Source: a virus
Lineage: Duplodnaviria; Heunggongvirae; Uroviricota; Caudoviricetes
IMG/VR virus record: IMGVR_UViG_2541047897_000009
Strand: one strand, 5' to 3'
Length of the DNA stretch: 19,720 nt
Under the pieces are notes generated by a model. It was not told the origin of the DNA and did no database searches. It saw nothing but the letters and a program-made list of their open reading frames with translations. Position numbers and translations under genes: made by a program. Positions 2,977 through 19,720 of this stretch are shown here, in pieces (the first letter of the stretch is position 1; each line of letters begins with the position of its first letter).

Positions 2977-3810
2977 ATGAACATCGAAAAAAGCAGATTA
3001 ATTTCTGAGGCCGCCCCTCATCCGAACGCCTCTCTGGGCACAATTAACGGTAATGAATTTGCCGCAATTGTCCCGGTTATTCCTGGTCATATCGGTGGGC
3101 GTGAAACCAATATTGTTAGCGCAAAAGCGTTACACAAAGCGTTGGGCGTGGGAAAAGACTTCTCTACATGGATCACTGATCGCATCTCTGAGTATGACTT
3201 CACCATTGGGCGCGATTACTCAGTCCATAAAACAATTTCCCCAAATTTGGGGAAAAGCCCGAATGGCGCGGCTTACAGCAAGATTAAGCAGTCTGGCAGA
3301 CCCGGTAAAGACTATCTGTTAAGTGTCGGAATGGCGAAAGAACTGGCAATGATCGAACGCAATGATCAGGGTCGCGCTATCCGCCGTTATTTCATCCAGT
3401 GCGAGGAAGAATTACAGCGTAGCGTGCCTGAAATCGCCGCCCGCTATCGTCGCCAGCTAAAAGCCCGTATCAGTGCCGCAAACAACTTTAAGCCAATGTG
3501 CGATGCGCTGAATATGGCCCGTGCCGAGATGGGTAAAACGACGCAGCAACACCACTACACAAACGAGAGCAATATGATTTCTCGTATCGTTCTTGGTGGG
3601 CTAACTGCTAAGCAGTGGGCGCGGATAAATGGCTATTCTGGCGAACCTCGCGACCATATGAACGCAGAACAGCTTGAGCACCTCTCATATCTCGAAAGCA
3701 CCAATATCACGTTAATTGATATGGGCATGGAATATGAGCAGCGCAAAGGAGAACTCACCCGCCTGTCGCAACGCTGGCTCGCTAAGCGTCTGGAGGCGGT
3801 CCATGTTTAA
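2977..3810 (+). CDS. Phage antirepressor (AntA-like N-terminal domain + KilA-C/AntB-like C-terminal domain)
   Basis: SAKALHKALGVGKDFSTWITDRISEYDFTIGRDY matches the AntA pattern; KDYLLSVGMAKELAMIERNDQGRAIRRYFIQCEEEL matches the KilAC pattern; GGAGA RBS. Confidence 0.85.
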   Translation: MNIEKSRLISEAAPHPNASLGTINGNEFAAIVPVIPGHIGGRETNIVSAKALHKALGVGKDFSTWITDRISEYDFTIGRDYSVHKTISPNLGKSPNGAAYSKIKQSGRPGKDYLLSVGMAKELAMIERNDQGRAIRRYFIQCEEELQRSVPEIAARYRRQLKARISAANNFKPMCDALNMARAEMGKTTQQHHYTNESNMISRIVLGGLTAKQWARINGYSGEPRDHMNAEQLEHLSYLESTNITLIDMGMEYEQRKGELTRLSQRWLAKRLEAVHV

Positions 3811-3985
3811 GCCGACAGGAACACCACAACCTCAAAAACGCTACAAAGATGCCCACGGAGCACTCGTTACTGTCGAAAGCGTGTCTCACAACCGAGTGAC
3901 GTTTTATCGCGACGGGTATCAATCGCCATGCGTACAACCGCTGGCACGTTTCATGAAGGAGTTCGCGGAGGTTAACAAATGCTAA
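3803..3985 (+). CDS. Small phage protein, DUF4222-like (60 aa)
   Basis: Start ATG at 3803 overlaps antirepressor stop (ATGTTTAA); sequence MFKPTGTPQPQKRYKDAHGALVTVESVSHNRVTFYRDGYQSPCVQPLARFMKEF recalls the DUF4222 pattern. Confidence 0.6.
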   Translation: MFKPTGTPQPQKRYKDAHGALVTVESVSHNRVTFYRDGYQSPCVQPLARFMKEFAEVNKC

Positions 3986-4478
3986 CCGCCCAGAAGAAGA
4001 TATTTTCACTGGCCGATATGTCGCCAAAATCCAGCAATATGACAGCAAAATCAGGCATTAATACAGCAGATGCAAGCAAAGTTTATCATTTGCTGGTGGT
4101 AGGAGCGGATGCCTTAACTATGTCAGAAATTACGGTCGATGGTGTTAGCGTTGAGAAGGTCAGCGGCTGCGCCAGAGAATTTCTGGTCGTAGATGGCTTT
4201 CTCTGCTCGCGTAGTGGCTCCACAAAAACCTTCGTCCACACGCGCGACGTTAACGAAATGAGCGCGATGTATTGTGCATCTGGTGCTTCCAATAGTGAGT
4301 TTTCGGAGTCCATAAAAAAGAGCTTGCCGTTATGCGGCAACACGGTTTATGGTTATAAGGCACCTCATAAAACGGGTGCCGGGATTGGCGTCCTGGTAAA
4401 TCGAATGGCGACATATGACGCGCCGAGCGTCTTTTTTTATGTCGTAGGTCTGACTCACCCATTTTTTGGGCGTTGGTG

Positions 4479-4484
4479 TATAAT
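4479..4484 (+). promoter_or_regulatory. Consensus -10 hexamer TATAAT; candidate early promoter of the icd-to-primase operon (poor -35)
   Basis: TATAAT at 4479-4484 preceded by a T-tract; about 155 nt upstream of the icd-like start. Confidence 0.35.
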
Positions 4485-4490
4485 CCAGCG

Positions 4491-4640
4491 CCTTTGTCAA
4501 TCAATGGTGGCTCAGGCAGGGGCTTCTTCGGAAGCGCCGGTATCCATTCGAGCCGGTTACGCCAACCCTGTCTGGGCTACCACCAGCGAAATTGGCGTTT
4601 CCGGTGGTAGCGTTACATGCTATCGAATGGAGGCTGCCAC
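4491..4640 (+). ncRNA. Structured leader; possible P4 CI-like immunity RNA region with seqA/seqB-like repeats
   Basis: UUCG-tetraloop hairpin 4522-4535; 9-bp perfect stem GCTACCACC (4576-4584) / GGTGGTAGC (4603-4611); direct repeats ATGGTGGCT (4504-4512) and ATGGAGGCT (4627-4635), the latter overlapping the icd RBS. Confidence 0.3.
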
Positions 4641-4835
4641 ATGCTGGCTACTACCCCTACCCAAAAACCGCAATTTATCTGGATTATCGCCGCAGTTCGC
4701 CGCGATTGCCCGACAATTACCGCCAAAATTCATCATATTGCTGCCGAGTCTGAACGCGATGCTCGCCGTTCTCTGGTGCGCGATCACGTCTGCTTTTTTG
4801 CTGGTCGTATCCGCATGGAGGTGGCACATGATTAA
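4641..4835 (+). CDS. icd: Host cell division inhibitor Icd-like small protein (64 aa)
   Basis: GGAGG RBS 6 nt upstream; QKPQFIWIIAAVRRD ... ESERDARRSL ... FFAGRI resembles the Icd-like family of P4-type elements (from memory). Confidence 0.6.
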   Translation: MLATTPTQKPQFIWIIAAVRRDCPTITAKIHHIAAESERDARRSLVRDHVCFFAGRIRMEVAHD

Positions 4836-5046
4836 AACCTACGATGTGCATATGGATCCCCTCGAACGCACAAGCCAGATCATCACACTGACAGAAGTGA
4901 TTAACGACATTCTGGTGAGCAACTCTCCCTCACGAGACGAAAGACTGAAGGCGTTACTCGCGATATTGGATCTCGCCGTTCGTGACGTTCATTTCCTGCT
5001 GGAAGGTGGCGAAATGCCAGGAAAAACGGGGGCAACCAATGAATAA
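4828..5046 (+). CDS. Hypothetical small protein (72 aa)
   Basis: GGAGGTGG RBS; ATG overlaps icd stop (ATGATTAA); clean start. Confidence 0.55.
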   Translation: MIKTYDVHMDPLERTSQIITLTEVINDILVSNSPSRDERLKALLAILDLAVRDVHFLLEGGEMPGKTGATNE

Positions 5047-5233
5047 CTCAATTAATGCCCCTCGACTTACGTCCGCACTTCAATTAATCGAGCAAGCAGC
5101 GGCTGTCCTGGTTGCTGTCAGTCTTTCGGCTGAAGAAATGGACGCTGCTGATGTCGTGGATGCGATTAAAGCGTGCTCATCTTTGGTTAACGATGCCCGT
5201 GCAGAGCTGGTAATTCTTGGGGGTGAAAAATGA
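5039..5233 (+). CDS. Hypothetical small protein (64 aa)
   Basis: ATG at 5039 overlaps upstream stop (ATGAATAA); in-operon. Confidence 0.5.
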   Translation: MNNSINAPRLTSALQLIEQAAAVLVAVSLSAEEMDAADVVDAIKACSSLVNDARAELVILGGEK

Positions 5234-5493
5234 ATATCAACTTAATTTATCGTCATCCGTGTGAGCTGGAAATTGAATCATTGCTGAGTCGTGAAGAGCT
5301 ATATCCAGACACATTCACTCTTGCAGATCGCACGACTGAACGGCTTACCAGAGCGCGCACAGGTCTGGTTCATGTGATGAATGAGATTCTTCCATCGGTG
5401 GGAGGGGAACAGGCGACAGTAATCAATAGCTGGCTACAAAAAGTTACCTCCCTGATAGATATCAGTTTAATCGATGCGGAGAGTGCGAAATGA
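5230..5493 (+). CDS. Hypothetical small protein (87 aa)
   Basis: ATGA start/stop overlap with upstream gene; G-rich RBS. Confidence 0.6.
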   Translation: MNINLIYRHPCELEIESLLSREELYPDTFTLADRTTERLTRARTGLVHVMNEILPSVGGEQATVINSWLQKVTSLIDISLIDAESAK

Positions 5494-5711
5494 CCAACAT
5501 CCAGCTCATTGAAGCGCAATGTCGCATCGAACAGGTTCAGACTGTTTTAGGGTTCTGGCTTGAAGGGGCCAGCCCCAGCAACAGAGACAAGTTAATGATT
5601 GGCGCGGTTATGTCACTGCTCAATGGCGTACCAAAAGCTATTCAGGAAGCAGACGAATTGTTGGGCAAATATGAGTTACAGAATCATTCAGGCGAGGCGA
5701 AACATGAATAA
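5490..5711 (+). CDS. Hypothetical small protein (73 aa)
   Basis: ATGA overlap; GGAGAG RBS. Confidence 0.6.
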   Translation: MTNIQLIEAQCRIEQVQTVLGFWLEGASPSNRDKLMIGAVMSLLNGVPKAIQEADELLGKYELQNHSGEAKHE

Positions 5712-6306
5712 TTTCTTAACCTTCCATGCAGAAGCAACGCCTGACGGCGTAAACATCATGCACCGCAGCAACGATGGCATGACAGAACGCGTTGAGACCG
5801 TTTCATATATTGATGCCGTAAATCGTCTGGATGCCGGGGATTATGACGATAAACCAGATGAAGGTATGTCAATACATCTCGCTATTGCCGATGGCGGCAA
5901 CCAGGGATATTTCGATTACACATCACAGCATAACGTCATTATGTGGAGATGGCTGATCGCAACAGTATTCATGCTGGAAATGAGAGAGGAAAACGGCACT
6001 GTCAGCATCATTGATGATACTGGCAATCCTTCCGAAGTGGCTGTTTATTCCAACGGCATCGTCGCCATGCCGCTGTATCCAGTAGCAGAGCGCCTCGCTA
6101 TGGCAAACAACATTGAGGGCGCGATGATAGAACGTTTTGGCATCGAGTCTGGCACAGAACGCGCCATCATTTTCTACAGAGCCATGATGGATGTGGAACA
6201 AGGAGCACTGACTCCATTTGGTCGTGAAACGCTTGCTGAACTTCACAACAGCTTTATAGCTGAACTGAATGAAAACGGCATGCCAGCGGAACCAGTGACG
6301 CACTGA
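5704..6306 (+). CDS. Hypothetical protein (200 aa)
   Basis: Internal ATG at 5704 overlapping upstream stop (ATGAATAA) with GAGG RBS; preferred over the longer 5599 start. Confidence 0.6.
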   Translation: MNNFLTFHAEATPDGVNIMHRSNDGMTERVETVSYIDAVNRLDAGDYDDKPDEGMSIHLAIADGGNQGYFDYTSQHNVIMWRWLIATVFMLEMREENGTVSIIDDTGNPSEVAVYSNGIVAMPLYPVAERLAMANNIEGAMIERFGIESGTERAIIFYRAMMDVEQGALTPFGRETLAELHNSFIAELNENGMPAEPVTH

Positions 6307-6316
6307 GGATGGATCC

Positions 6317-6658
6317 ATGATTACTAAAAATTTCCGACTGAATGCGCTGGCAAATAAGTATGCGTCGGCACTGTATAACCACATTACCTCCACCAGCGGC
6401 GGGGACTATTTCATGGTTGATGCGGACGGCGAGGCCGTCCGTGTGGAAATCGTCAATGGAGTAAAAGGCGTTCGCAGCCTGATCGATAGCTACACACTGG
6501 CAGCCATGAAAGTGTTCTACCCGCAGTGGGAAACCGTGGGGATAGAGCTTCTTGATCGTTGCGTCACTAAGGACGGATTGACTGACGTCGGGCGTGAGAT
6601 ATGGCAAAGCATGGTTAATGACATGGGCGCAACTGTAGCGGGAGGTTCTCATGCGTGA
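6317..6658 (+). CDS. Hypothetical protein (113 aa)
   Basis: GAGGATGG RBS; in-operon. Confidence 0.6.
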   Translation: MITKNFRLNALANKYASALYNHITSTSGGDYFMVDADGEAVRVEIVNGVKGVRSLIDSYTLAAMKVFYPQWETVGIELLDRCVTKDGLTDVGREIWQSMVNDMGATVAGGSHA

Positions 6659-7022
6659 AAATGCAGAAATGGCGCTTAGCTCCGCAATCGGAGAGCAGGT
6701 GGCAAAGATTGCTGGCGCTGTGTGGATTCATAACCTTCATTCTACTGGTGAAGAGAAAATGGCAATTCAGACGCCAGAGGGACGCACCATTACTACATCT
6801 CTGAAGGCGTCAGATGTTTGTGATCTGATTTGCGCATTCATGTACCCAGCAATGAGGACTGTCCACGGCGATAAGTGGAAACTTGCGACAACCGCTGAAT
6901 TTGATATGTGGCTAAACAATGATGGCATGCTGACTGATTACGGAATAACCAAGTGGCAGATGCTGGTTAGCCATATCGCAAACGCTATAGACCACGTGGG
7001 GTACGGTGATGCGAAACATTGA
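6651..7022 (+). CDS. Hypothetical protein (123 aa)
   Basis: GGGAGG RBS; 8-nt overlap with upstream gene; overlaps primase start. Confidence 0.6.
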   Translation: MRENAEMALSSAIGEQVAKIAGAVWIHNLHSTGEEKMAIQTPEGRTITTSLKASDVCDLICAFMYPAMRTVHGDKWKLATTAEFDMWLNNDGMLTDYGITKWQMLVSHIANAIDHVGYGDAKH

Positions 7023-9765
7023 TCTTATCCGTCAGGTTATCAGTGCGTCTGAAAACAACTGGCCTCATGTGCTGGGCTGCCTGAACATAAATGTCCCTGA
7101 CTCTCCGCGCCGTCATGCTCCCTGCCCTGCATGTGGGGGCAAAGATCGATTCCGGTTCGATGACAACGGGCGCGGTAGCTTCATCTGTAATCAGTGCGGC
7201 GCTGGTGATGGACTGGATTTAATTAAACGCGTAAATAACTGCGACACAACAGAGGCGGCGCTTCTTGCCGCTGATGTTCTGGGTATTGATTACCGGACAA
7301 CGGAAACACCAGAAGCCACCAGCCAGAAACGGGAACAACTGGAAACCGAGCGCCAGCGACGCGAACAGGAGCGCCTGAAAAGGGCAGAGAAGGACGAACA
7401 ACAAAGACGGGATACGTTTTCCCGTCAGTTTGATGACATGCGCAGAAAGGCTGTAAACGGCAAATCTGATTATCTGGTTGCGAAAGGGGTAGGTGATTTT
7501 ACATTCCCCGTGTTGCCCGATGGATCTCTGTTGCTGGCGCTGGTGGATAAATCCGGCGCAGTAACAGCAGCACAGACTATTACCTCACATGGTGAAAAAA
7601 GACTCCTGACAGGTTCAGCAAAGCGAGGGGCATATCACGCCATAAACGCACCAGAAACAACACAGAGCATCTTAATCGCAGAAGGGCTGGCAACGGCATT
7701 ATCTGCCCATTTAATTCGTCCAGAGGCGCTGACAGTGGCGGCGATTGATGCCGGGAACCTGTTATATGTCGCCCAGGTACTGCGGGATAAATTTCCTTCA
7801 GCACAAATCATCATTGCTGCGGATAACGACCACAGCGAAGGAAGACAAAACACGGGGAGAATAGCAGCAGAAAAAGCAGCTTTATCTGTTTCTGGATGGG
7901 TGGCATTACCCCCGACAGATCACAAAGCAGACTGGAATGATTACCACCAAAAACACGGCATTAAATGCGCCACAGAAGCGTTCAATAAGTCAATGTACCA
8001 ACCACAGGGTAATGGCGTGAAACAGGAGCCACAGACCATTGAGGGAAGCGATTTTAAGGTTATGGATACCGACCCACTGAAACCAAGAATAGAAAGCCGC
8101 GAGGATGGTATTTATTGGGTATCTCCGAGAGCTGACAGCCAGAGTGGAGAAATCATCAATAACGAAAGCTGGTTATGTTCTCCGTTAAGCGTTATCGGTA
8201 CTGGCAGAGACGATAAAGACCAGTATCTCATTCTTCGCTGGCTGTCGTTTGGTTCTGAAACGCCGACAACCGCTGCCATTCCACTGGCTGATATTGGTGA
8301 ACGTGAAGGATGGCGCACACTTAAAGCTGGTGGGGTAAATGTCACGACCAAAAGCAGCCTCAGAGCAATACTGGCAGACTGGCTACAACGCAGTGGCTCT
8401 CGTGAATTGTGGCGTGTTGCTCATGCCACTGGCTGGCAATGCGGAGCGTACATCATGCCTGATGGGGAAATCATCGGAACACCTGAAAATCCTGTGCTGT
8501 TCAGCGGGAGAAGCTCAGCCGCAGCCGGATATACCGTCTCAGGGAGCGCGAAAAGCTGGCGTGATAACGTGGCGCGTCTGGCCTTTGGTAACTATTCAAT
8601 GATGACCGGGATCGGCGCAGCACTGGCAGCGCCATTGATTGGGCTGGTGGGCGCTGACGGGTTCGGCATTCATTTCTATGAGCAGTCGAGCGCAGGTAAG
8701 ACCACCACGGCAAACGTGGCGAGCAGCTTATACGGCAACCCTGATTTACTGCGGCTGACGTGGTACGGAACCGCGCTGGGGCTGGCAAATGAAGCTGCCG
8801 CCCACAATGACGGACTAATGCCGCTTGATGAAGTTGGTCAGGGCGCTGATCCTGTCAGTGTTTCACAGTCTGCCTATGCGTTATTTAACGGTGTAGGGAA
8901 ACTGCAAGGCGCTAAAGATGGTGGAAACCGGGATCTAAAACGCTGGCGTACAGTGGCAATCAGCACCGGAGAAATGGATTTAGAAACATTTATCGCTACT
9001 TCCGGGCGAAAAACCAAAGCCGGGCAACTGGTGCGACTGCTGAATATTCCGTTGAGTAAAGCAGTACGCTTTCACGATTACCAGAACGGAAAACAGCACG
9101 CAGACGCACTGAAAGACGCTTACCAGCATCACCACGGCGCGTCCGGGCGTGAGTGGATTAAATGGCTGGCAGACCACCAGCAACAGGCTATTAAAACTGT
9201 TCGTGATTGCGAAAGCAGATGGAGAAGCCTGATCCCATCCGATTATGGTGAGCAGGTTCACCGTGTAGCCGCGCGATTTGCCATTCTGGAGGCCGCATTG
9301 TTGTTAGGCGAGGTTGTAACAGGCTGGGATGCTCAGACATGCCGTGATGCGATACAGCACAGCTATAACGCATGGTTGCGCGAGTTCGGCACAGGTAACA
9401 AAGAGCATCAGCAGATTATTGAACAAACGGAGGCATTTCTTAATGCCTATGGGCTTAGCCGTTTTGCACCATTTCCATACAGCCCGGCAGATTTGCCCAT
9501 CAAAGATTTAGCCGGATACCGTCAGCGTGGAGAACATGACGAAAGTCCAATGATTTTCTACACATTCCCGGCCACATTTGAAAAGGAGATCGCATGTGGT
9601 TTCAACGCAAAACAGTTTGCTGAAGTGTTGAAAAAAGCCGGGATGCTAACCCCACCAAACAGCGGTCGTGGATACCAAAGAAAATCACCACGTATTCAGG
9701 GACGACAAATAAACGTTTATGTACTCAATTACCAGCCAGGAGATTACAACTCATCTGAAGAATGA
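7009..9765 (+). CDS. Bifunctional primase-helicase, P4 alpha type (zinc-ribbon primase + Toprim + C-terminal NTPase)
   Basis: CPACGG...CNQCG zinc ribbon; Toprim-like ILIAEGLATALS ... IIIAADNDH; Walker-A-like SSAGKTT; 919-aa ORF (GTG 7006 / ATG 7009). Confidence 0.9.
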   Translation: MRNIDLIRQVISASENNWPHVLGCLNINVPDSPRRHAPCPACGGKDRFRFDDNGRGSFICNQCGAGDGLDLIKRVNNCDTTEAALLAADVLGIDYRTTETPEATSQKREQLETERQRREQERLKRAEKDEQQRRDTFSRQFDDMRRKAVNGKSDYLVAKGVGDFTFPVLPDGSLLLALVDKSGAVTAAQTITSHGEKRLLTGSAKRGAYHAINAPETTQSILIAEGLATALSAHLIRPEALTVAAIDAGNLLYVAQVLRDKFPSAQIIIAADNDHSEGRQNTGRIAAEKAALSVSGWVALPPTDHKADWNDYHQKHGIKCATEAFNKSMYQPQGNGVKQEPQTIEGSDFKVMDTDPLKPRIESREDGIYWVSPRADSQSGEIINNESWLCSPLSVIGTGRDDKDQYLILRWLSFGSETPTTAAIPLADIGEREGWRTLKAGGVNVTTKSSLRAILADWLQRSGSRELWRVAHATGWQCGAYIMPDGEIIGTPENPVLFSGRSSAAAGYTVSGSAKSWRDNVARLAFGNYSMMTGIGAALAAPLIGLVGADGFGIHFYEQSSAGKTTTANVASSLYGNPDLLRLTWYGTALGLANEAAAHNDGLMPLDEVGQGADPVSVSQSAYALFNGVGKLQGAKDGGNRDLKRWRTVAISTGEMDLETFIATSGRKTKAGQLVRLLNIPLSKAVRFHDYQNGKQHADALKDAYQHHHGASGREWIKWLADHQQQAIKTVRDCESRWRSLIPSDYGEQVHRVAARFAILEAALLLGEVVTGWDAQTCRDAIQHSYNAWLREFGTGNKEHQQIIEQTEAFLNAYGLSRFAPFPYSPADLPIKDLAGYRQRGEHDESPMIFYTFPATFEKEIACGFNAKQFAEVLKKAGMLTPPNSGRGYQRKSPRIQGRQINVYVLNYQPGDYNSSEE

Positions 9766-10536: not shown

Positions 10537-10998
10537 ATGGAACTAAAATTTATTGATAACCCTGTGCGATTACAGGCCTTTCTTAACGAGCCAGGCAATA
10601 CCGAAAATATTGTTGAGCCGGGGCACACGTACTACATCAAGCCTGATGCGGTATATCTCGGCATCTACGAAGGATTGGTGCTGGCTGGCGTTCATGAAGT
10701 GCGTAACTTCTGGCATAGCATTGTTGAATGCCATGCGGTGTACGCCCCCGGATTCCGTGGTGAATATGCACTGCAAGGGCATCGATTATTCTGCAAGTGG
10801 CTTCTCGAAAACTCACCATTCCTTAACAGCATTACCATGGTTCCTGACACCACGAAATACGGACGGGCAATTATCCGTTTGCTTGGCGCTACCCGTGTTG
10901 GTCACCTTGATGATGCTTATATCAGATGTGGTAAACCCGTCGGCGTAACGCTTTATCAGTTAACTCGGCAACAATATAAGGAATTCAGCGAATGTTAA
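10537..10998 (+). CDS. Hypothetical protein (153 aa); first gene of a coupled 4-gene operon, possibly a virion/ejection-protein assembly factor (P22 gp14-like by position only)
   Basis: Clean ORF; downstream gene start overlaps its stop (ATGTTAA). Confidence 0.65.
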   Translation: MELKFIDNPVRLQAFLNEPGNTENIVEPGHTYYIKPDAVYLGIYEGLVLAGVHEVRNFWHSIVECHAVYAPGFRGEYALQGHRLFCKWLLENSPFLNSITMVPDTTKYGRAIIRLLGATRVGHLDDAYIRCGKPVGVTLYQLTRQQYKEFSEC

Positions 10999-11669
10999 TT
11001 ACCCACATAGCTCATAAACATCTCAATCGTGCCGTATACGAAAAAGGCGGTGATGGTGGTGCCTCTAAAGCTCAGGCGAAGGCCCAGCAGCAGGCAATTG
11101 ATTTGCAGCGCGAGCAGTGGAATACGGTGATGAATAATCTCAAGCCGTATGCAGAAGTCGGATTGCCTGCTTTACAACAACTACAAGGACTGATGACTCT
11201 GGAAGGGCAGAATAAAGCCGCGAATGATTTCTTTGGTTCTGGTTTATATAAAACACAGGCAGATCAGGCCCGTTATCAGAACCTTGTCTCAGCAGAAGCT
11301 ACCGGGGGGCTTGGCTCAACAGCTACCAGTAACCAGTTATCTTCCATTGCGCCCATGCTTTATAACAATTGGCTTAGTGGGCAAATGCAAAATTATGGAA
11401 ACCTGCTAAATGTCGGGATGAATGCGGCATCAGGGCAGGCAACAGCAGGGCAAAACTACGCCAATAATACCGGGCAACTCTTGCAGGGGCTTGGCGCTAT
11501 TCGTGCAGGTCAGGCGCAGCAGCCATCCAGTCTTGCGCGTGGTATTGGTGGGGCGGCATCAGGCGCTTTAGCGGGTGCGCAACTTGGTTCCGTTGTTCCG
11601 GGTATAGGTAATGTCGCCGGGGCTATTGGTGGTGGGCTTATTGGTCTTGTTGGGGGGCTTGGATTCTAA
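10992..11669 (+). CDS. Putative virion internal / DNA-ejection protein (225 aa; P22 gp7-like by size, order and composition)
   Basis: AAGGAA RBS; Q/A-rich; glycine-zipper hydrophobic C-terminus (GIGNVAGAIGGGLIGLVGGLGF). Confidence 0.7.
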   Translation: MLITHIAHKHLNRAVYEKGGDGGASKAQAKAQQQAIDLQREQWNTVMNNLKPYAEVGLPALQQLQGLMTLEGQNKAANDFFGSGLYKTQADQARYQNLVSAEATGGLGSTATSNQLSSIAPMLYNNWLSGQMQNYGNLLNVGMNAASGQATAGQNYANNTGQLLQGLGAIRAGQAQQPSSLARGIGGAASGALAGAQLGSVVPGIGNVAGAIGGGLIGLVGGLGF

Positions 11670-13090
11670 TGGCGACATGGCAACTTGGCGGGCTGCCTAG
11701 CATGGCACCGCAAAATGATAATGCTCCTCGTTCTTCCGTTCCTCAGCCTGTGCAGTATCAGCAGCAGCCAAACGTAGGTTTAATGGCGCTACAGGGGCTA
11801 AGAGGCGTTGCTGAGATTAATCAGCAGGCACGTCAACAACAGCGTAAAGCAGAGTTTCAGAAAGCATATGCCGGGGCTTTTGAGTCTGGAGACAGAAACA
11901 AAATGCGCAGTCTTATTTCTGAGTATCCAGAAGAATTTGAAAGCGTTCAGAAAGGGATGGGCTTTATTGATGACGACCAGAGAAATTCTATTGGTCATCT
12001 TGCGACTAGTGCTCAAATCGCATCTTCGCTCGGAACTGGGGCATTTGGAAAATTCATAGCAGATAACGAAGATGAAATGCGTCGCTTGGGAATTTCTCCT
12101 GAGTCTGTTGCCGAAATGCATGTTAATGATCCACAGGGATTCCAGCGGCTTGCTGGTAGTATGGCACTGTTTTCTCTCGGTCATGAGAAGTATTTCGATA
12201 TCAAAGATCAAATGGAAGGTCGGGATATTGAGCGTGGCAAGTTGGCAGAAACAATCCGCAGCAATCAGGCTGGCGAAGCACTTCAGGCGAGAGGGCAGGA
12301 TATTAGCCGAGCAAATGCGTTAACGTCAGCATATGCACCAACAGCAGCAATGCAGAATTACAATCAGTACGCTCAAATGTTAAAGGAGGATCCAGAGGGG
12401 GCGGCGGCATTTGCGGCAGCGGCTGGAATTAATACAAACGCCAAAAAATTAATGAGTGTTAGAGAAAACGATGATGGCACTGTCACAAAATACTACACAG
12501 ACGGAAGTGAAGAGCAGGGAAAACTAAACCAGCCAATATCTGGAGATGGGTTTCGTCCAATAGCTTTGCCAACAGCCCAAAAGATCATGGAAAAGTCGCC
12601 AGAAGGGGCTAAAAAAGCTGCTGGATTTGCATACAGAGTTAGGGATGCTCTTGATTCAATGGATACACTGAAAGGCCAGCTTAGCCCACAGCGAGTGGCG
12701 ATCATTAATAATGCTTTGGGTAATGGGACGCTGGCTAACTTAACGCTCAGCCCAACAGAGCAGCAATACGTTGTTAATGCTAATGACGCAATAATGGCAA
12801 TACTCCGTCAGGAAACAGGGGCAGCTATCGTACCTGCTGAAATGTCAAAATATTATCAAATGTATTTCCCTCAGCCTGGCGACTCCACAAAAACCATTGA
12901 TACCAAGCGCCGGAAGATGGAAAACCAGTTCAATTCGCTGAAAGCTGCTTCTGGTCGAGCTTATGATGCTTTGCGGGTTATTTCAGCAGTTGACAGAGGG
13001 ACTTCTTCTTCGTCGCAGACATTGCCGCAATCTGAGCAGGTATCACAGCCAGCAGCCAGCAGTAACTTTTCTTCACTATGGGGTGATTAA
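11669..13090 (+). CDS. Putative DNA-ejection / internal virion protein (473 aa; P22 gp20-like by size and order)
   Basis: TAATG overlap with upstream gene; low-complexity Q/A/S-rich termini. Confidence 0.7.
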   Translation: MATWQLGGLPSMAPQNDNAPRSSVPQPVQYQQQPNVGLMALQGLRGVAEINQQARQQQRKAEFQKAYAGAFESGDRNKMRSLISEYPEEFESVQKGMGFIDDDQRNSIGHLATSAQIASSLGTGAFGKFIADNEDEMRRLGISPESVAEMHVNDPQGFQRLAGSMALFSLGHEKYFDIKDQMEGRDIERGKLAETIRSNQAGEALQARGQDISRANALTSAYAPTAAMQNYNQYAQMLKEDPEGAAAFAAAAGINTNAKKLMSVRENDDGTVTKYYTDGSEEQGKLNQPISGDGFRPIALPTAQKIMEKSPEGAKKAAGFAYRVRDALDSMDTLKGQLSPQRVAIINNALGNGTLANLTLSPTEQQYVVNANDAIMAILRQETGAAIVPAEMSKYYQMYFPQPGDSTKTIDTKRRKMENQFNSLKAASGRAYDALRVISAVDRGTSSSSQTLPQSEQVSQPAASSNFSSLWGD

Positions 13091-15195
13091 TGGCTAAAGC
13101 ATGGAAAGATGTTATCGCCTCTCCACAGTATCAGGCGTTAGCACCAGAACAAAAAGCGCAGGCTCAGGAGCAATACTTCAATGAAGTCGTTGCCCCGCAA
13201 GCCGGAGAAAGTGTAGCGCAGGCTAAGCAGGCTTTTTATGCTGCCTATCCACTACCATCAACGAATGAAATAGACCGATCCCAATCAGCAACTCAAAATA
13301 TTCAACATACATCATCTGATAATTCTCTTGCGTCAGGGTATGCAAAGTTAGCTACTCAGCAAAGAGAGGGGCTTGAGCGTTCAGCAGAACAGGGAGCCAG
13401 CCTTGGGGCTGCGATGCGCGATGCTATAACAGGCGAAAGCCGAATGACTCCAGAGATGGCGAGACTGCAAAATGTCGACCTTGCCCCAGAGTTAACCTCA
13501 CTCAGTATGGATGCTCTAAAAGCTCGATGGTCTCAACTTTTCGGCTCTGACGCATCTCAGGAAAAGATTCTTCAGAGCATGGGAGCGAAATTAAGGCAGG
13601 ATGAGAAGGGTAACACTATCGTTTCCCTGCCATCCGGTGATTATGCTCTGAACAAGCCGGGTTTATCGCCGCAAGACGTGGCATCGTTTCTGGCTAATGC
13701 GCTGGCGTTTACACCAGCGGGCAGGGCCGGAACGGTGCTGGGGGCCATAGGGAAATCAGCAGCTACAGATTTAGCACTACAGGGAGCCACCAGCCTTGCT
13801 GGTGGAGAAGATATTGATCCGTTACAAACGGTAATTTCTGCTGGCATTGGCGGCATTGGTAAGGGGCTGGAGAATACAGCGAGTGCGGTTTCGAGGGCTG
13901 TTCGTGGTGATATGGCACCGGAAGCGAAAGCCGCTGTTGATTTTGCATCGGAAAGAAACCTGCCGTTAATGACCAGTGACGTACTGAAAGATAAAAACAC
14001 TGTGCAGAGTCTGGCCCAGAAAACAGGCGAAAAAATCCCTTTTTTTGGAACGGGTACGAACAGGTTGAATCAACAACAGGCACGGGAAAATCTGGTCAGA
14101 ACATATAACGATGGTCTGGGAGGCATTTCAGATAAACAGCTTTATGAATCTGCGACTAAAGGGCAGCAAAAATTCATTGAGGCCGCAGGAAAGCGATATA
14201 ACCGCATAATTGACGCTATGGGGGATACCCCTGTCGATCTCTCAAACACGGTAAAAGCTATCGACAATCAGATTGCCGTGTTAAGCCGCCCGGGCAAATC
14301 TCAGGATAGAGCCGCGGTAAAAGTCTTGCAGCAATTTAAAGACGATATCACCAGCGGACCAAATGACCTGCGTCTGGCGAGAGAAAACAGAACTGACCTT
14401 CGAAAGCGGTTCATGAATTCAAACGAGACAGTTGATAAAGACACGCTCCAGAAAGCCAGCGATATTGTCTACAAGGCATATACGCTGGATATGAGAAGGG
14501 CAGTAGCCCAGAAACTGGGTTCAGAAGAAGCAGCCAATATGGCAAGGGTCGATCGCTCATGGTCTAAATTCAATGACATGATGGGAAGAACGCGCGTTCA
14601 GAAGGCAATAGCCAGCGGCAAGGCCACGCCTGAGGATGTAACAAAACTCGTTTTTAGCCAAAGCTCATCAGAACGTTCTCAGCTTTACAGGCTTCTGGAT
14701 GACAACGGCAGGCAGAACGCACGGGCAGCCATAATACAGAATGCTGTAGATAAGGCGACTGATTCGGCGGGGAATATCAGCGTTGAGAAGTTTATTAACA
14801 CGCTACACCGGAACAGAAAGCAATCCGCAACGTTCTTTAAGGGCGTGCACGGAAAGGAACTGGACGGCATTATTAAATACCTCAACGATACCAGACAGGC
14901 GGCAAAGGTTGACGGTCAGAAATTAAACAGCCAGAAACTTTATGGCCTGCTGGTTGGTGGAGGCGCTATAAATGCGGCAGTTCTGGCGGGGATGCTGAAA
15001 ACGGCTGCGTTTGTTGTTCCTGCTGCTGGTGCCGTAGGCGGAGCAGCGAAGGCATACGAAAGCCCTGTTATACGAAATGCCTTGTTACGTCTGGCAAATA
15101 CGCCAAAAGGTAGCACAGCATATGACAGAGCGATCAGTACGGTCACACAATCACTGACCACAGCAGCACAAGCATCGCAAAAGGAAGCTCAATAA
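13090..15195 (+). CDS. Putative DNA-ejection / internal virion protein (701 aa; P22 gp16-like by position)
   Basis: TAATG overlap with upstream gene; A/Q/G-rich; hydrophobic glycine-rich segment near C-terminus (GLLVGGGAINAAVLAGMLKTAAFVVPAAGAVGGAA). Confidence 0.7.
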   Translation: MAKAWKDVIASPQYQALAPEQKAQAQEQYFNEVVAPQAGESVAQAKQAFYAAYPLPSTNEIDRSQSATQNIQHTSSDNSLASGYAKLATQQREGLERSAEQGASLGAAMRDAITGESRMTPEMARLQNVDLAPELTSLSMDALKARWSQLFGSDASQEKILQSMGAKLRQDEKGNTIVSLPSGDYALNKPGLSPQDVASFLANALAFTPAGRAGTVLGAIGKSAATDLALQGATSLAGGEDIDPLQTVISAGIGGIGKGLENTASAVSRAVRGDMAPEAKAAVDFASERNLPLMTSDVLKDKNTVQSLAQKTGEKIPFFGTGTNRLNQQQARENLVRTYNDGLGGISDKQLYESATKGQQKFIEAAGKRYNRIIDAMGDTPVDLSNTVKAIDNQIAVLSRPGKSQDRAAVKVLQQFKDDITSGPNDLRLARENRTDLRKRFMNSNETVDKDTLQKASDIVYKAYTLDMRRAVAQKLGSEEAANMARVDRSWSKFNDMMGRTRVQKAIASGKATPEDVTKLVFSQSSSERSQLYRLLDDNGRQNARAAIIQNAVDKATDSAGNISVEKFINTLHRNRKQSATFFKGVHGKELDGIIKYLNDTRQAAKVDGQKLNSQKLYGLLVGGGAINAAVLAGMLKTAAFVVPAAGAVGGAAKAYESPVIRNALLRLANTPKGSTAYDRAISTVTQSLTTAAQASQKEAQ

Positions 15196-18236: not shown

Positions 18237-18698
18237 TCACCAGTGCCTTAGAGTTTCATAATTCATAACTGCTATGGCGATCTCCAGCTTAGTCGTTTCA
18301 AGTATTTCTTCACATAAGACCAGATCATGAATGATGTTTTTGAGTAGCTCCTTATCGATTGCTCCATCAGCCACCCAAACTGCGATGTTTTCCATTTCTC
18401 GCACAAAAAGTTGTACACAATGGCCAAAGCCATTTATCTCAAGAAAGTATGTTGAAAGGGCGATGCTTGATCTTTTATTTCCGTCACTAAAAGCATGGAA
18501 TTTATTGATTGCAAAGAACAAGTGACTTAGTTTGTCTACAAATCCTGGGTAATACCAGTCGTTTTGGATATGCTCAAGGGCACTCGCCAGTACCCCTTGG
18601 TCTCTGATTCCGTGTAAGCCGCCCGTTTTCTCAATGATCCAATCATGAACCCTAATGGCGTGTTCAATATCAAAATAATTGAATTGTATATCGTCCAT
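18237..18698 (-). CDS. Fic/Doc-family protein (death-on-curing-like toxin; 153 aa)
   Basis: Fic/Doc core motif HAFSDGNKRSS (H-x-F-x-D-G-N-K-R); GGGGG RBS 5 nt upstream; 8 bp downstream of partner gene on the same strand. Confidence 0.85.
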   Translation of the reverse strand: MDDIQFNYFDIEHAIRVHDWIIEKTGGLHGIRDQGVLASALEHIQNDWYYPGFVDKLSHLFFAINKFHAFSDGNKRSSIALSTYFLEINGFGHCVQLFVREMENIAVWVADGAIDKELLKNIIHDLVLCEEILETTKLEIAIAVMNYETLRHW

Positions 18699-18706
18699 TT
18701 ATACCC

Positions 18707-19720
18707 CTATCGGTCTTTTAGTCTTTTGAACACTTCTAGGGTTTCTGGGTCGTTCAGGCGCTCTTCAAGTGATTTACTTTTCTCACCCAAGAAACGTTCA
18801 AAGTCCCCTTCAGGTACAGCTCTTACGTAAGCTTCAAGTTTTTCATGCAGCGCATCTCTGAAACAGAGATCCCTACTTGCCATTTTGGTTCTGGCATCTA
18901 GCATCATAGGCTTAAACAATGGATGAGATTCAAATTGTTTAAAAATAGCTTCTGCTTCCTGTTGTGTCAGTTTTCTGCCTAAACGAGAGAATTCTTGTTT
19001 TAATTCATGTGCAATACCTGATTCGAAACCTGCAATAAGAGTTAGAGCTTCGGAGTACATTGTGTCCCGGATTTTCTCTTTTTGAGCAAGATTCAATACC
19101 TTGCGGTACTCGGCCGCGTCTTCGTGGAAAATACTTTGATACACAAGGTTGGTAAACCTTGCATACTTCCAATTATTCCCTTCGACGCATTCATCTAAGG
19201 CATCAGTGAATTGCTTGCGATAGCTTTCTTCTTGAAAAGAAGCCAATAGGTAATTCTCATCACGTTGGTTGATGTACTTGGTATGTCCACCAGCCCTTTC
19301 GGCTAAAGTATCAATGACAATATCAAGCAGGCGCGTACGTATAATCTTGGCTTGCTCACTTTCGACCAGTAGCATGGCGAAGTTCAGGACAGCTCGGTAA
19401 TTAAACACTCCAATAGTAGGAGCCTTGTTACCCTCATTGATGAAGGAGACATGCTCTAACCCTTTGAATTCTTTTAGCTCTCTCCCTTTTATAAGTCGAT
19501 AACCATTGCTCTTGAGTTCATTGCTATGATTGGCGATATACCGTTCCACAGTGGCATCGCTTATACCAAAAATTTCCATAAGTTGACTTTTTGTAAAAAG
19601 TCGTTCTCCATTGAACTCAACTCCACCAAGAGCAAGATGTTTTTCAGCTTGTCGGAGTGCATAGGAGTTGTTCAGAATATTTTGTCTGTCATGAGCGGAG
19701 GTTGTTAAATCTTTAGCCAT
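18707..19720 (-). CDS. RhuM/DinD-like protein (337 aa), upstream partner of the Doc-like gene; start coincides with the window edge
   Basis: AT-rich ORF; overall pattern resembles RhuM-family proteins that commonly pair with Fic/Doc genes (from memory, unverified); stop TAG 8 nt before Doc ATG. Confidence 0.6.
   Translation of the reverse strand: MAKDLTTSAHDRQNILNNSYALRQAEKHLALGGVEFNGERLFTKSQLMEIFGISDATVERYIANHSNELKSNGYRLIKGRELKEFKGLEHVSFINEGNKAPTIGVFNYRAVLNFAMLLVESEQAKIIRTRLLDIVIDTLAERAGGHTKYINQRDENYLLASFQEESYRKQFTDALDECVEGNNWKYARFTNLVYQSIFHEDAAEYRKVLNLAQKEKIRDTMYSEALTLIAGFESGIAHELKQEFSRLGRKLTQQEAEAIFKQFESHPLFKPMMLDARTKMASRDLCFRDALHEKLEAYVRAVPEGDFERFLGEKSKSLEERLNDPETLEVFKRLKDR

Follow-up and report, generated by a model that had tools for sequence, protein, structure and literature searches.

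How is the operon that opens with a short Icd-like gene controlled in IMG/VR virus record IMGVR_UViG_2541047897_000009, a 19,720-nucleotide (nt) stretch of Caudoviricetes DNA, the whole of which we call ‘the window’? The original prediction for this locus placed a P4-like immunity leader directly in front of the icd-like gene, at 4450–4640. In outline that proposal holds up: the region contains an Rfam C4 match, the gene matches NCBIfam NF033153, and phage P4 aligns with it over 4501–4662 at 71% identity. We conclude, with a probability of roughly 85%, that the region is a P4/P1-type antisense RNA immunity module of a mobile element situated at tRNA-Thr (thrW) in Escherichia coli. Directly established are the identities and structures of two RNAs, four covarying complementarities between recognition segments and target boxes, the conserved position of a predicted promoter, a terminator, the overlap of one target box with a Shine–Dalgarno (SD) sequence, and the Icd-like gene itself. 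The system is already known: stock Rfam models detect both RNAs, and the literature covers P4-like prophages. Work of the 1990s on P1/P7 and P4 established the antisense mechanism, and its link to IsrK dates from 2013–2016. The locus is a clean, well-preserved example of the IsrK/SeqA–C4/CI switch, and it leaves current understanding unchanged.

What, then, are the RNAs? An Rfam scan of the whole window returned two matches above the curated thresholds, both on the plus strand (as are all features below, unless stated otherwise). One, at 4360–4437, is an IsrK/SeqA-like leader RNA (RF01394; 67.1 bits against a gathering threshold of 50, E = 1.1e-12). The other, at 4500–4587, is a C4/CI antisense RNA (RF01695; 79.5 bits against 45, E = 1.9e-14), and it spans model positions 1–87 of 87. 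The latter is the structured RNA that had been expected within 4450–4640. In every respect that can be tested, the RNA module has the properties of the C4/CI and IsrK/SeqA families.

Covariation was assessed in an alignment (A1) of 36 loci that share the spacing of the window and align essentially without gaps. The C4 RNA is closed by a stem of 17 base pairs (bp; 4505–4521/4566–4582), 99.7% paired, with 5 pairs changed on both sides. Inside it, hairpin 1 (4522–4535) is the UUCG-tetraloop hairpin that the first inspection had picked out; the loop occupies 4527–4530, and the stems, 4522–4526/4531–4535 (GCUUC/GAAGC), are 100% paired, and 4 of their 5 pairs covary. Hairpin 2 (4536–4557) has an invariant stem and a 12-nt loop, and an 8-nt junction is also present. 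The acceptor-like closing stem is followed by CCA (4583–4585), and CC(A/C) stands at this place in 35 of the 36 loci. The minimum-free-energy (MFE) fold of C4, at −47.2 kcal/mol, reproduces the Rfam structure. Folding and covariance analysis against homologues had been proposed as the check on the leader, and its outcome agrees with the proposal: the MFE fold is the Rfam structure, and the helices, apart from the invariant stem of hairpin 2, covary, as do the four pairings described below. By analogy with P4 and P1, the mature C4 would run from ~4505/4506 to 4584/4585, or ~80 nt.

C4 carries two recognition segments. The first, a′ (CCATTCGA, 4544–4551), is in the loop of hairpin 2, and the second, b′ (ACGCCAA, 4559–4565), is in the junction. 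An exact complement of a′, TCGAATGG, occurs at 4401–4408 (a1) and 4623–4630 (a2), and nowhere else nearby; an exact complement of b′, TTGGCGT, occurs at 4385–4391 (b1) and 4592–4598 (b2), and again nowhere else nearby. The target box a1, in full ATCGAATGG (4400–4408), is in a single-stranded linker of the leader RNA. Its counterpart a2 (4622–4633) is equivalent to seqC of P4; it repeats ATCGAATGG at 4622–4630, pairs with a′ as far as 4631, and lies over the SD sequence GGAGG (4629–4633) of the Icd-like open reading frame (ORF), whose ATG is at 4641.

These boxes both bear out and amend the original prediction, which had invoked a P4-like RNA pairing with repeated leader targets. The principle is upheld by the covariation of the complementarity; the upstream targets at 4385–4408 and the entire second pair, b′ with b1 and b2, had been missed. 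The two direct repeats proposed at the time, ATCAATGGTGGCT (4500–4512) and ATCGAATGGAGGCT (4622–4635), are present as strings, and the second does overlap the icd ribosome-binding site (RBS), as claimed. Their kinship to each other, however, is peculiar to the window: it scores 11.5 there, whereas 35 homologues average 7.0 and do not exceed 9.5. What was taken for a seqA-like repeat at 4500–4512 actually forms the 5′ side of the C4 closing stem and is invariant in sequence, whereas the second copy differs from one immunity specificity to another. The repeats proper are ATCGAATGG (4400–4408 and 4622–4630) and TTGGCGT (4385–4391 and 4592–4598), and one copy of each lies outside 4450–4640.

Are these complementarities a general property of such loci? 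We scanned IMG/VR with a C4 scaffold pattern in which both recognition segments were left unspecified, and obtained at least 120 loci. The listed loci, deduplicated and joined by P4, SfV and the window, make up 105 contexts. The pattern (GGG-N15-GCCGGT...) misses the window, which has N14 at that point; the window was included manually, and its own specificity class is consequently under-represented. Upstream, 92% of the contexts hold an exact complement of a′ that is 7 nt or longer, and downstream 94% do; for b′ the figures are 99% and 98%, respectively. When loops were matched with the flanks of loci of other specificity, the figure was 3–4% (maximum 8.6% in 50 permutations). The positions of the boxes are equally regular. 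Box b2 is found at a fixed offset of +23 in 98% of the contexts (3% with mismatched partners), a2 at +54, followed by GGA(G), in 94% (4% in the control), and b1 lies a fixed 16 nt 5′ of a1.

Within the 36-locus alignment, all four pairings are maintained by change on both sides. The b1:b′ and a1:a′ pairings are intact in 100% of cells, with 5/6 and 6/8 pairs, respectively, changed on both sides; a′:a2 is intact in 99.4% (6/9 pairs) and b′:b2 in 98.8% (6/7 pairs). Sliding the partners by 1–3 columns reduces pairing to 27–47%, and none of 500 shuffles reaches the observed values. The two copies of each box also stay alike, a1 and a2 being identical at 8.4 of 9 positions and b1 and b2 at 7.8 of 8. 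In the window, duplexes of the a′–b′ segment with the upstream and downstream target regions have predicted energies of −34.2 and −36.3 kcal/mol, respectively (z = −3.6 and −4.7 against dinucleotide shuffles).

One homologue displays the code in a single comparison. Locus L013 (7123–7412, minus strand) is near-identical to 4360–4649 of the window, except that a1, a′ and a2 have been swapped together, to TCTGAAGG, CCTTCAGA (also written CCUUCAGA) and TCTGAAGG, respectively; b1, b′ and b2 are unchanged. L013 thus reads as a natural three-site, single-key specificity swap. Across the 105 contexts the recognition segments reassort, at least 21 a-loops and at least 13 b-segments occurring in at least 38 combinations, and the variants are common to P4-like, P1-like and lambdoid contexts.

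Where does transcription of the module begin? The IsrK/SeqA-like leader, whose helices covary and are 100% maintained in the 36-locus alignment, consists of hairpin 1 (4360–4379), with 5 of 7 pairs covarying; hairpin 2 (4380–4395), which holds b1 in its loop; the linker with a1; and an intrinsic terminator (4417–4438) made up of a stem at 4417–4431 and a run of U, called by the terminator scan and coinciding with the end of the Rfam match. In front of the leader is a predicted promoter of the PLE/PisrK type (4324–4353), with a −35 of TTGCCG (4324–4329), an 18-nt spacer and a −10 of TATGGT (4348–4353). The transcription start predicted for it, ~4360, is the first base of the isrK Rfam match. 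The promoter position 5′ of the IsrK-like element is kept in 69 distinct homologous loci of all classes, including the P4 PLE (TTGCCT-N18-TATAGT). The promoter agrees with the consensus at 8 of 12 positions and does not reach the cut-off of the generic promoter scan, which found no sigma-70-like site in 4200–4900. Because the scan gave nothing there, the call is made wholly from positional conservation and the alignment with the P4 PLE, and the promoter is presumed active on that basis. An inverted repeat, TTGCCG-TTATG-CGGCAA, forms a hairpin at 4324–4340 that overlaps the −35 and spacer, with a run of A at 4314–4319 before it. On the minus strand this hairpin with its AAAAAA reads as an intrinsic terminator in the terminator scan; it could be a stop for antisense transcription coming from the immunity region, or an operator.

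The original prediction had started the operon further downstream, at a consensus TATAAT with a weak −35. The hexamer exists (4479–4484; 6/6 matches to the −10 consensus), and the −35 is indeed weak, with at best 2/6 matches at spacings of 16–18 bp. It is unlikely to be the promoter of the operon: it sits in the loop of a covarying hairpin, is seldom conserved and is not called by the scan, and the conserved promoter at 4324–4353 is outside 4450–4640 altogether. The hairpin in question occupies the spacer between the two RNA genes (4469–4492). Its arms are 4469–4476/4485–4492 and its 8-nt loop is TGTATAAT; pairing holds in 90% of cells, and every one of the 8 pairs has changes on both sides. 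Among 76 distinct spacers, a consensus −10 is found at this loop position only in the spacer of the window and L013, in L094 and in L098. The spacer itself is elastic, the distance from the IsrK terminator to C4 varying from ~25 to ~110 nt among the listed loci.

A further structure links C4 to the downstream boxes. The perfect 9-bp stem described in the original prediction, GCTACCACC (4576–4584) with GGTGGTAGC (4603–4611), is present, conserved and covarying: it is 95.4% paired in the 36 loci, and both partners have changed in 3 of its pairs (columns 219/250, for instance, have UA in 15, CG in 13 and UG in 7). The resulting hairpin (4576–4611) carries b2 in its loop. Since one of its strands is also the 3′ arm of the closing stem of C4, it excludes the mature C4 fold, and would form only in unprocessed read-through RNA. 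P4 has GCTATCGCC/GGCGATAGC at this place. Alternative structures, A and B, have been proposed for the isrK–orf45 RNA of Gifsy-1, and the 9-bp stem resembles them (PMC4825925). The MFE fold of 4586–4660, in which GGUGGUAGC and an anti-SD-like UUCC pair with a2 and the SD sequence, was rejected, being 68.6% paired in the alignment and no better than shuffles. Just 3′ of b2, (C/U)UCC (4599–4602) is complementary to GGAG of the SD sequence (4629–4632) and is kept in 94–100% of the 36 loci. The CUCC:GGAG contact is invariant, and so is uninformative for covariation as a cis anti-SD.

What the module would control is a short gene. The first translated gene of the operon (4641–4835) encodes a 64-amino acid (aa) protein like Icd and the Kil protein of P4. 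It matches NF033153 (phage_ICD_like) with E = 3.7e-20 and 71.7 bits against a cut-off of 25; RefSeq labels it ‘host cell division inhibitor Icd-like protein’, and its homologue in P4 (L001) is at 1642–1839. The beginning of the gene (4640–4719) is C-rich and G-poor (C/G = 1.9), and is a candidate entry site for Rho; the composition is compatible with such a site and is not proof of one.

A second, much longer ORF (3979–5046; 355 aa) runs through the promoter, the two RNA genes and the Icd-like gene, and is called an ‘ash family protein’ in E. coli 042. Pfam Phage_ASH matches it (E = 3e-30) at aa 124–232, which corresponds to 4348–4674 and so lies exactly over the RNA region, and the match to phrog_6928 falls partly in this frame and partly in the Icd-like ORF. 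Of 102 loci, 94% keep the corresponding frame open throughout the RNA region, and the other two frames are open in 0% and 6%. This suggests a genuine read-through ORF, the likely counterpart of P4 eta. Its ATG, at 3979, overlaps the stop codon of a DUF4222 gene, and P4 eta likewise begins at the end of ORF88. The RefSeq annotation hides the switch: it enters the whole region as a pseudogene or under ‘ash family protein’, and has no feature for either RNA.

How might the parts work together? Constitutive initiation at the 4324–4353 promoter would yield transcripts from ~4360, most of them ending at the intrinsic terminator (4417–4437) to give an IsrK/SeqA-like RNA of ~77 nt. Transcripts that read through would carry the spacer hairpin and the C4/CI RNA. 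RNase P would then cut the 5′ end of C4 at ~4505/4506, and trimming would produce a 3′ end after the CCA, in analogy with P4 and P1. The mature C4 would expose a′ and b′ for pairing with a2 and b2 in the messenger RNA (mRNA) of its own operon; pairing at a2 would cover the SD sequence of the Icd/Kil-like ORF and prevent its translation, and the untranslated, C-rich RNA would be open to termination by Rho, as in the timm mechanism of P4. Forti and colleagues in 1999 and Briani and colleagues in 2000 are said to have described kil, eta and timm of P4 and this Rho-dependent mechanism. The small ORFs downstream and the primase/helicase gene (7006–9765) would be silenced in this way, and the element would be quiescent and immune to elements of like specificity. 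The b1 and a1 boxes in the IsrK-like RNA would form a second binding site for C4. Several of these steps have precedents. RNase P processes CI of P4 and C4 of P1/P7, which are substrates of the hairpin type (PMC5499578), and in both P4 and Gifsy-1 the C4-type RNA arises by processing of longer transcripts, begun 5′ of the IsrK/SeqA element (PMC4825925).

Could the locus be read otherwise? Most drastically, it might be nothing other than the gene for the 355-aa ‘ash family protein’, the RNA matches being incidental. The Phage_ASH match, the frame open in 94% of loci and the coding-sequence annotation in E. coli 042 all speak for a protein. As a sufficient account we reject this, and consider it barely credible, because the compensatory changes in the stems and the covariation of loops and targets at five sites are RNA-level constraints that a protein does not explain. 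In the summaries of P4 genetics given in PMC4825925 and PMC5499578 (ref 49), moreover, the immunity factor is an RNA, and translation of an eta-like ORF from transcripts begun further upstream is compatible with the RNA genes and does not replace them. The operon promoter could instead be the TATAAT at 4479–4484, as originally proposed, with a start near 4491 and with 4500–4512 and 4622–4635 as targets of the seqA/seqC type. The −10 hexamer is perfect and recurs at the same position in the divergent spacers of L094 and L098, and a transcript from ~4491 would still hold the complete C4 precursor with b2 and a2. Against it are the 2/6 match at −35, the empty promoter scan, the absence of the hexamer from 72 of the 76 spacers and its place in the loop of a covarying hairpin. 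The supposed upstream target belongs to the C4 closing stem, as its 5′ arm, its likeness to 4622–4635 is not conserved, and the real upstream targets are at 4385–4408. In Gifsy-1, furthermore, the C4-like RNA STnc1160 depends on the isrK promoter and vanishes when this is deleted (PMC4825925). We regard this version as quite improbable. A milder variant keeps the immunity module as we describe it and assigns the TATAAT to a weak, constitutive internal promoter, specific to the lineage, that would supply C4 independently of read-through at the IsrK terminator. The consensus hexamer does occur in three distinct spacers of one sub-clade, and the geometry would leave a 5′ leader of ~14 nt for RNase P. 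There is neither a −35 nor an extended −10 TG, however; the three occurrences may share ancestry, and the loop is generally rich in T and A, so that TATAAT can arise there without selection for promoter function. On balance such a promoter is unlikely. An analogy with a supposed internal promoter of P1 was dropped, RCS47 having no −10 at this place.

The remaining alternative concerns the direction in which the IsrK-like RNA acts. In the activator logic of Gifsy-1, the mRNA would be closed in cis, and the IsrK-like RNA in trans would decoy C4, or the C4 portion of the mRNA, and open the Icd-like RBS, so that the module would chiefly time induction and not maintain immunity. The b1 and a1 boxes are near-exact copies of b2 and a2 in all loci. 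In Salmonella, IsrK acts on its own read-through mRNA, the short RNA relieving repression in trans and activating translation of orf45–anrP, and IsrK and STnc1160 are complementary (PMC4825925). In P4, on the other hand, the SeqA site is needed to establish immunity, and mutations in seqA reduce rather than raise its establishment, as the work of Sabbattini (1995) is represented in PMC4825925 and PMC3632133. Covariation does not support the particular cis-closed fold predicted for the window, and the two roles are compatible with each other. Activation of this kind is a tentative possibility, and a minority one. Rather doubtful is a combination in which the IsrK-like RNA is a stoichiometric decoy, the ratio of terminated to read-through transcripts setting immunity, and in which one clade has added an internal C4 promoter. 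If this were true, the spacer −10 would uncouple C4 synthesis from the transcript ratio and lock the element in the immune state, and the two-key code would define many cross-immunity groups among satellites, P1-like plasmid-phages and lambdoid phages.

The P4/P1-type immunity module remains our preferred reading, and several points weigh against it. In the window and in 11 other loci, though not in P4, the start codon of the Icd-like gene and the long eta-like ORF are in different frames. RNA processing, the block of translation, termination by Rho and the direction of the IsrK effect are all carried over from work on P4, P1 and Gifsy-1. The b1/a1 pair may be a co-target or a decoy, roles that are not exclusive and that sequence does not separate, and the consensus −10 of the spacer could be a second, read-through-independent source of C4 in the lineage of the window. 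Among the ORFs of the window, which is perhaps not the whole element, no match to sid, psu, delta or epsilon was found in Pfam or PHROGs. The island is not a canonical P4: with no match to sid, psu or delta, a different gene order, and ejection genes of the P22 type after the primase, the output of the switch could differ from that of P4.

To what kind of element, then, does the module belong? Many E. coli strains, 042 among them, have chromosomal islands that match positions 4300–4900 with 100% identity, and in strain M10 the island adjoins proA and tRNA-Thr. Hallmarks of P4-like satellites are present in an integrase (1–1254), a Phage_AlpA protein (2330–2533) and an alpha-type primase/helicase (7006–9765; Zn-ribbon, Toprim_3 and DUF927; phrog_1139, E = 2e-178). 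Judged as a whole, the island is only partly P4-like, these three being the parts in common. No Ant match was found among the ORFs at 4828–7022, downstream of the Icd-like gene. An antirepressor gene of the AntA/AntB family (2977–3810) and the DUF4222 gene (3803–3985) are upstream of the immunity module and in the same orientation. Between the integrase and the AntA-family gene, two ORFs, at 1273–2223 (316 aa) and 2533–2964 (143 aa), have no match in Pfam or PHROGs, and may be cargo genes of the island. On the 3′ side of the primase is a block of P22 type (10537–15195) comprising DUF2824/head morphogenesis (gp14-like), P22_gp7, Inj_translocase (gp20-like) and gp16-like proteins, the last of these a 701-aa DNA transfer/transglycosylase protein. 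Here a satellite could be supplying its own ejection proteins, or the block could mark where a prophage remnant joins the island. The window closes, on the minus strand, with a Fic/DOC-family gene (18237–18698; Pfam E = 3.5e-13) and, next to it, an ORF of 337 aa (18707–19720) that matches a transcriptional-regulator PHROG weakly.

The value of such loci is partly practical. Immunity specificity can be read from two short boxes, from which co-immunity among the satellites, P1-like plasmids and lambdoid prophages of one genome could be predicted. The homologue set, moreover, is unusually complete as natural compensatory evidence for an RNA–RNA interaction in trans, spanning five sites and at least 38 specificity combinations.

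How does the window compare with the systems from which this understanding came? P4, lambdoid SfV and P1-like RCS47, where icd and ant follow, each have both Rfam families, with order and orientation unchanged. The elements of P4 (PLE – seqA – cI/CI RNA with seqB – seqC – kil/eta – alpha operon) come in the order found in the window, and the boxes of the window match the seqA/seqB/seqC layout summarized in PMC4825925. In both, the downstream target lies over the RBS of a Kil/Icd-like ORF of 64–65 aa that is followed by a primase operon, and both have the 9-bp alternative stem and a long ORF through the RNA genes, in addition to the 71% DNA identity over 4501–4662. They differ in the recognition segments, a′ being CCAUUCGA in the window and CCUGUGAA in P4, and b′ ACGCCAA and UUCUCAC, respectively, and in the spacer between terminator and C4, which is 62 nt in the window and ~107 nt in P4.

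The immI region of P1/P7 (a1 b1 – c4 – a2 b2 – icd – ant) has in common with the window its two-segment recognition, its duplicated targets, an a2 box that covers the icd RBS, and a first gene of the Icd type. The P1 layout a1 b1 – c4(a′ b′) – a2 b2 – icd was reportedly described by Citron and Schuster in 1990, and RCS47 has exactly the immI layout together with both Rfam families. The window differs from P1/P7 in having no antirepressor after the Icd-like gene; its output is a replication operon, as in P4, and its AntA-family gene is upstream. Among lambdoid phages, SfV (orf37 region) is ~78% identical to 4358–4652 and has both Rfam families, and the isrK – STnc1160 – orf45 – anrP region of Gifsy-1 also has a leaky IsrK terminator, a C4-like RNA made from read-through, and control at the RBS of a short first ORF (PMC4825925). 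In the lambdoid phages, however, an antirepressor/antiterminator cascade is controlled and IsrK is described as an activator in trans, whereas genes for P4-type replication lie downstream in the window. The module would work like that of P4, with a replication operon as its output, and is laid out like immI of P1.

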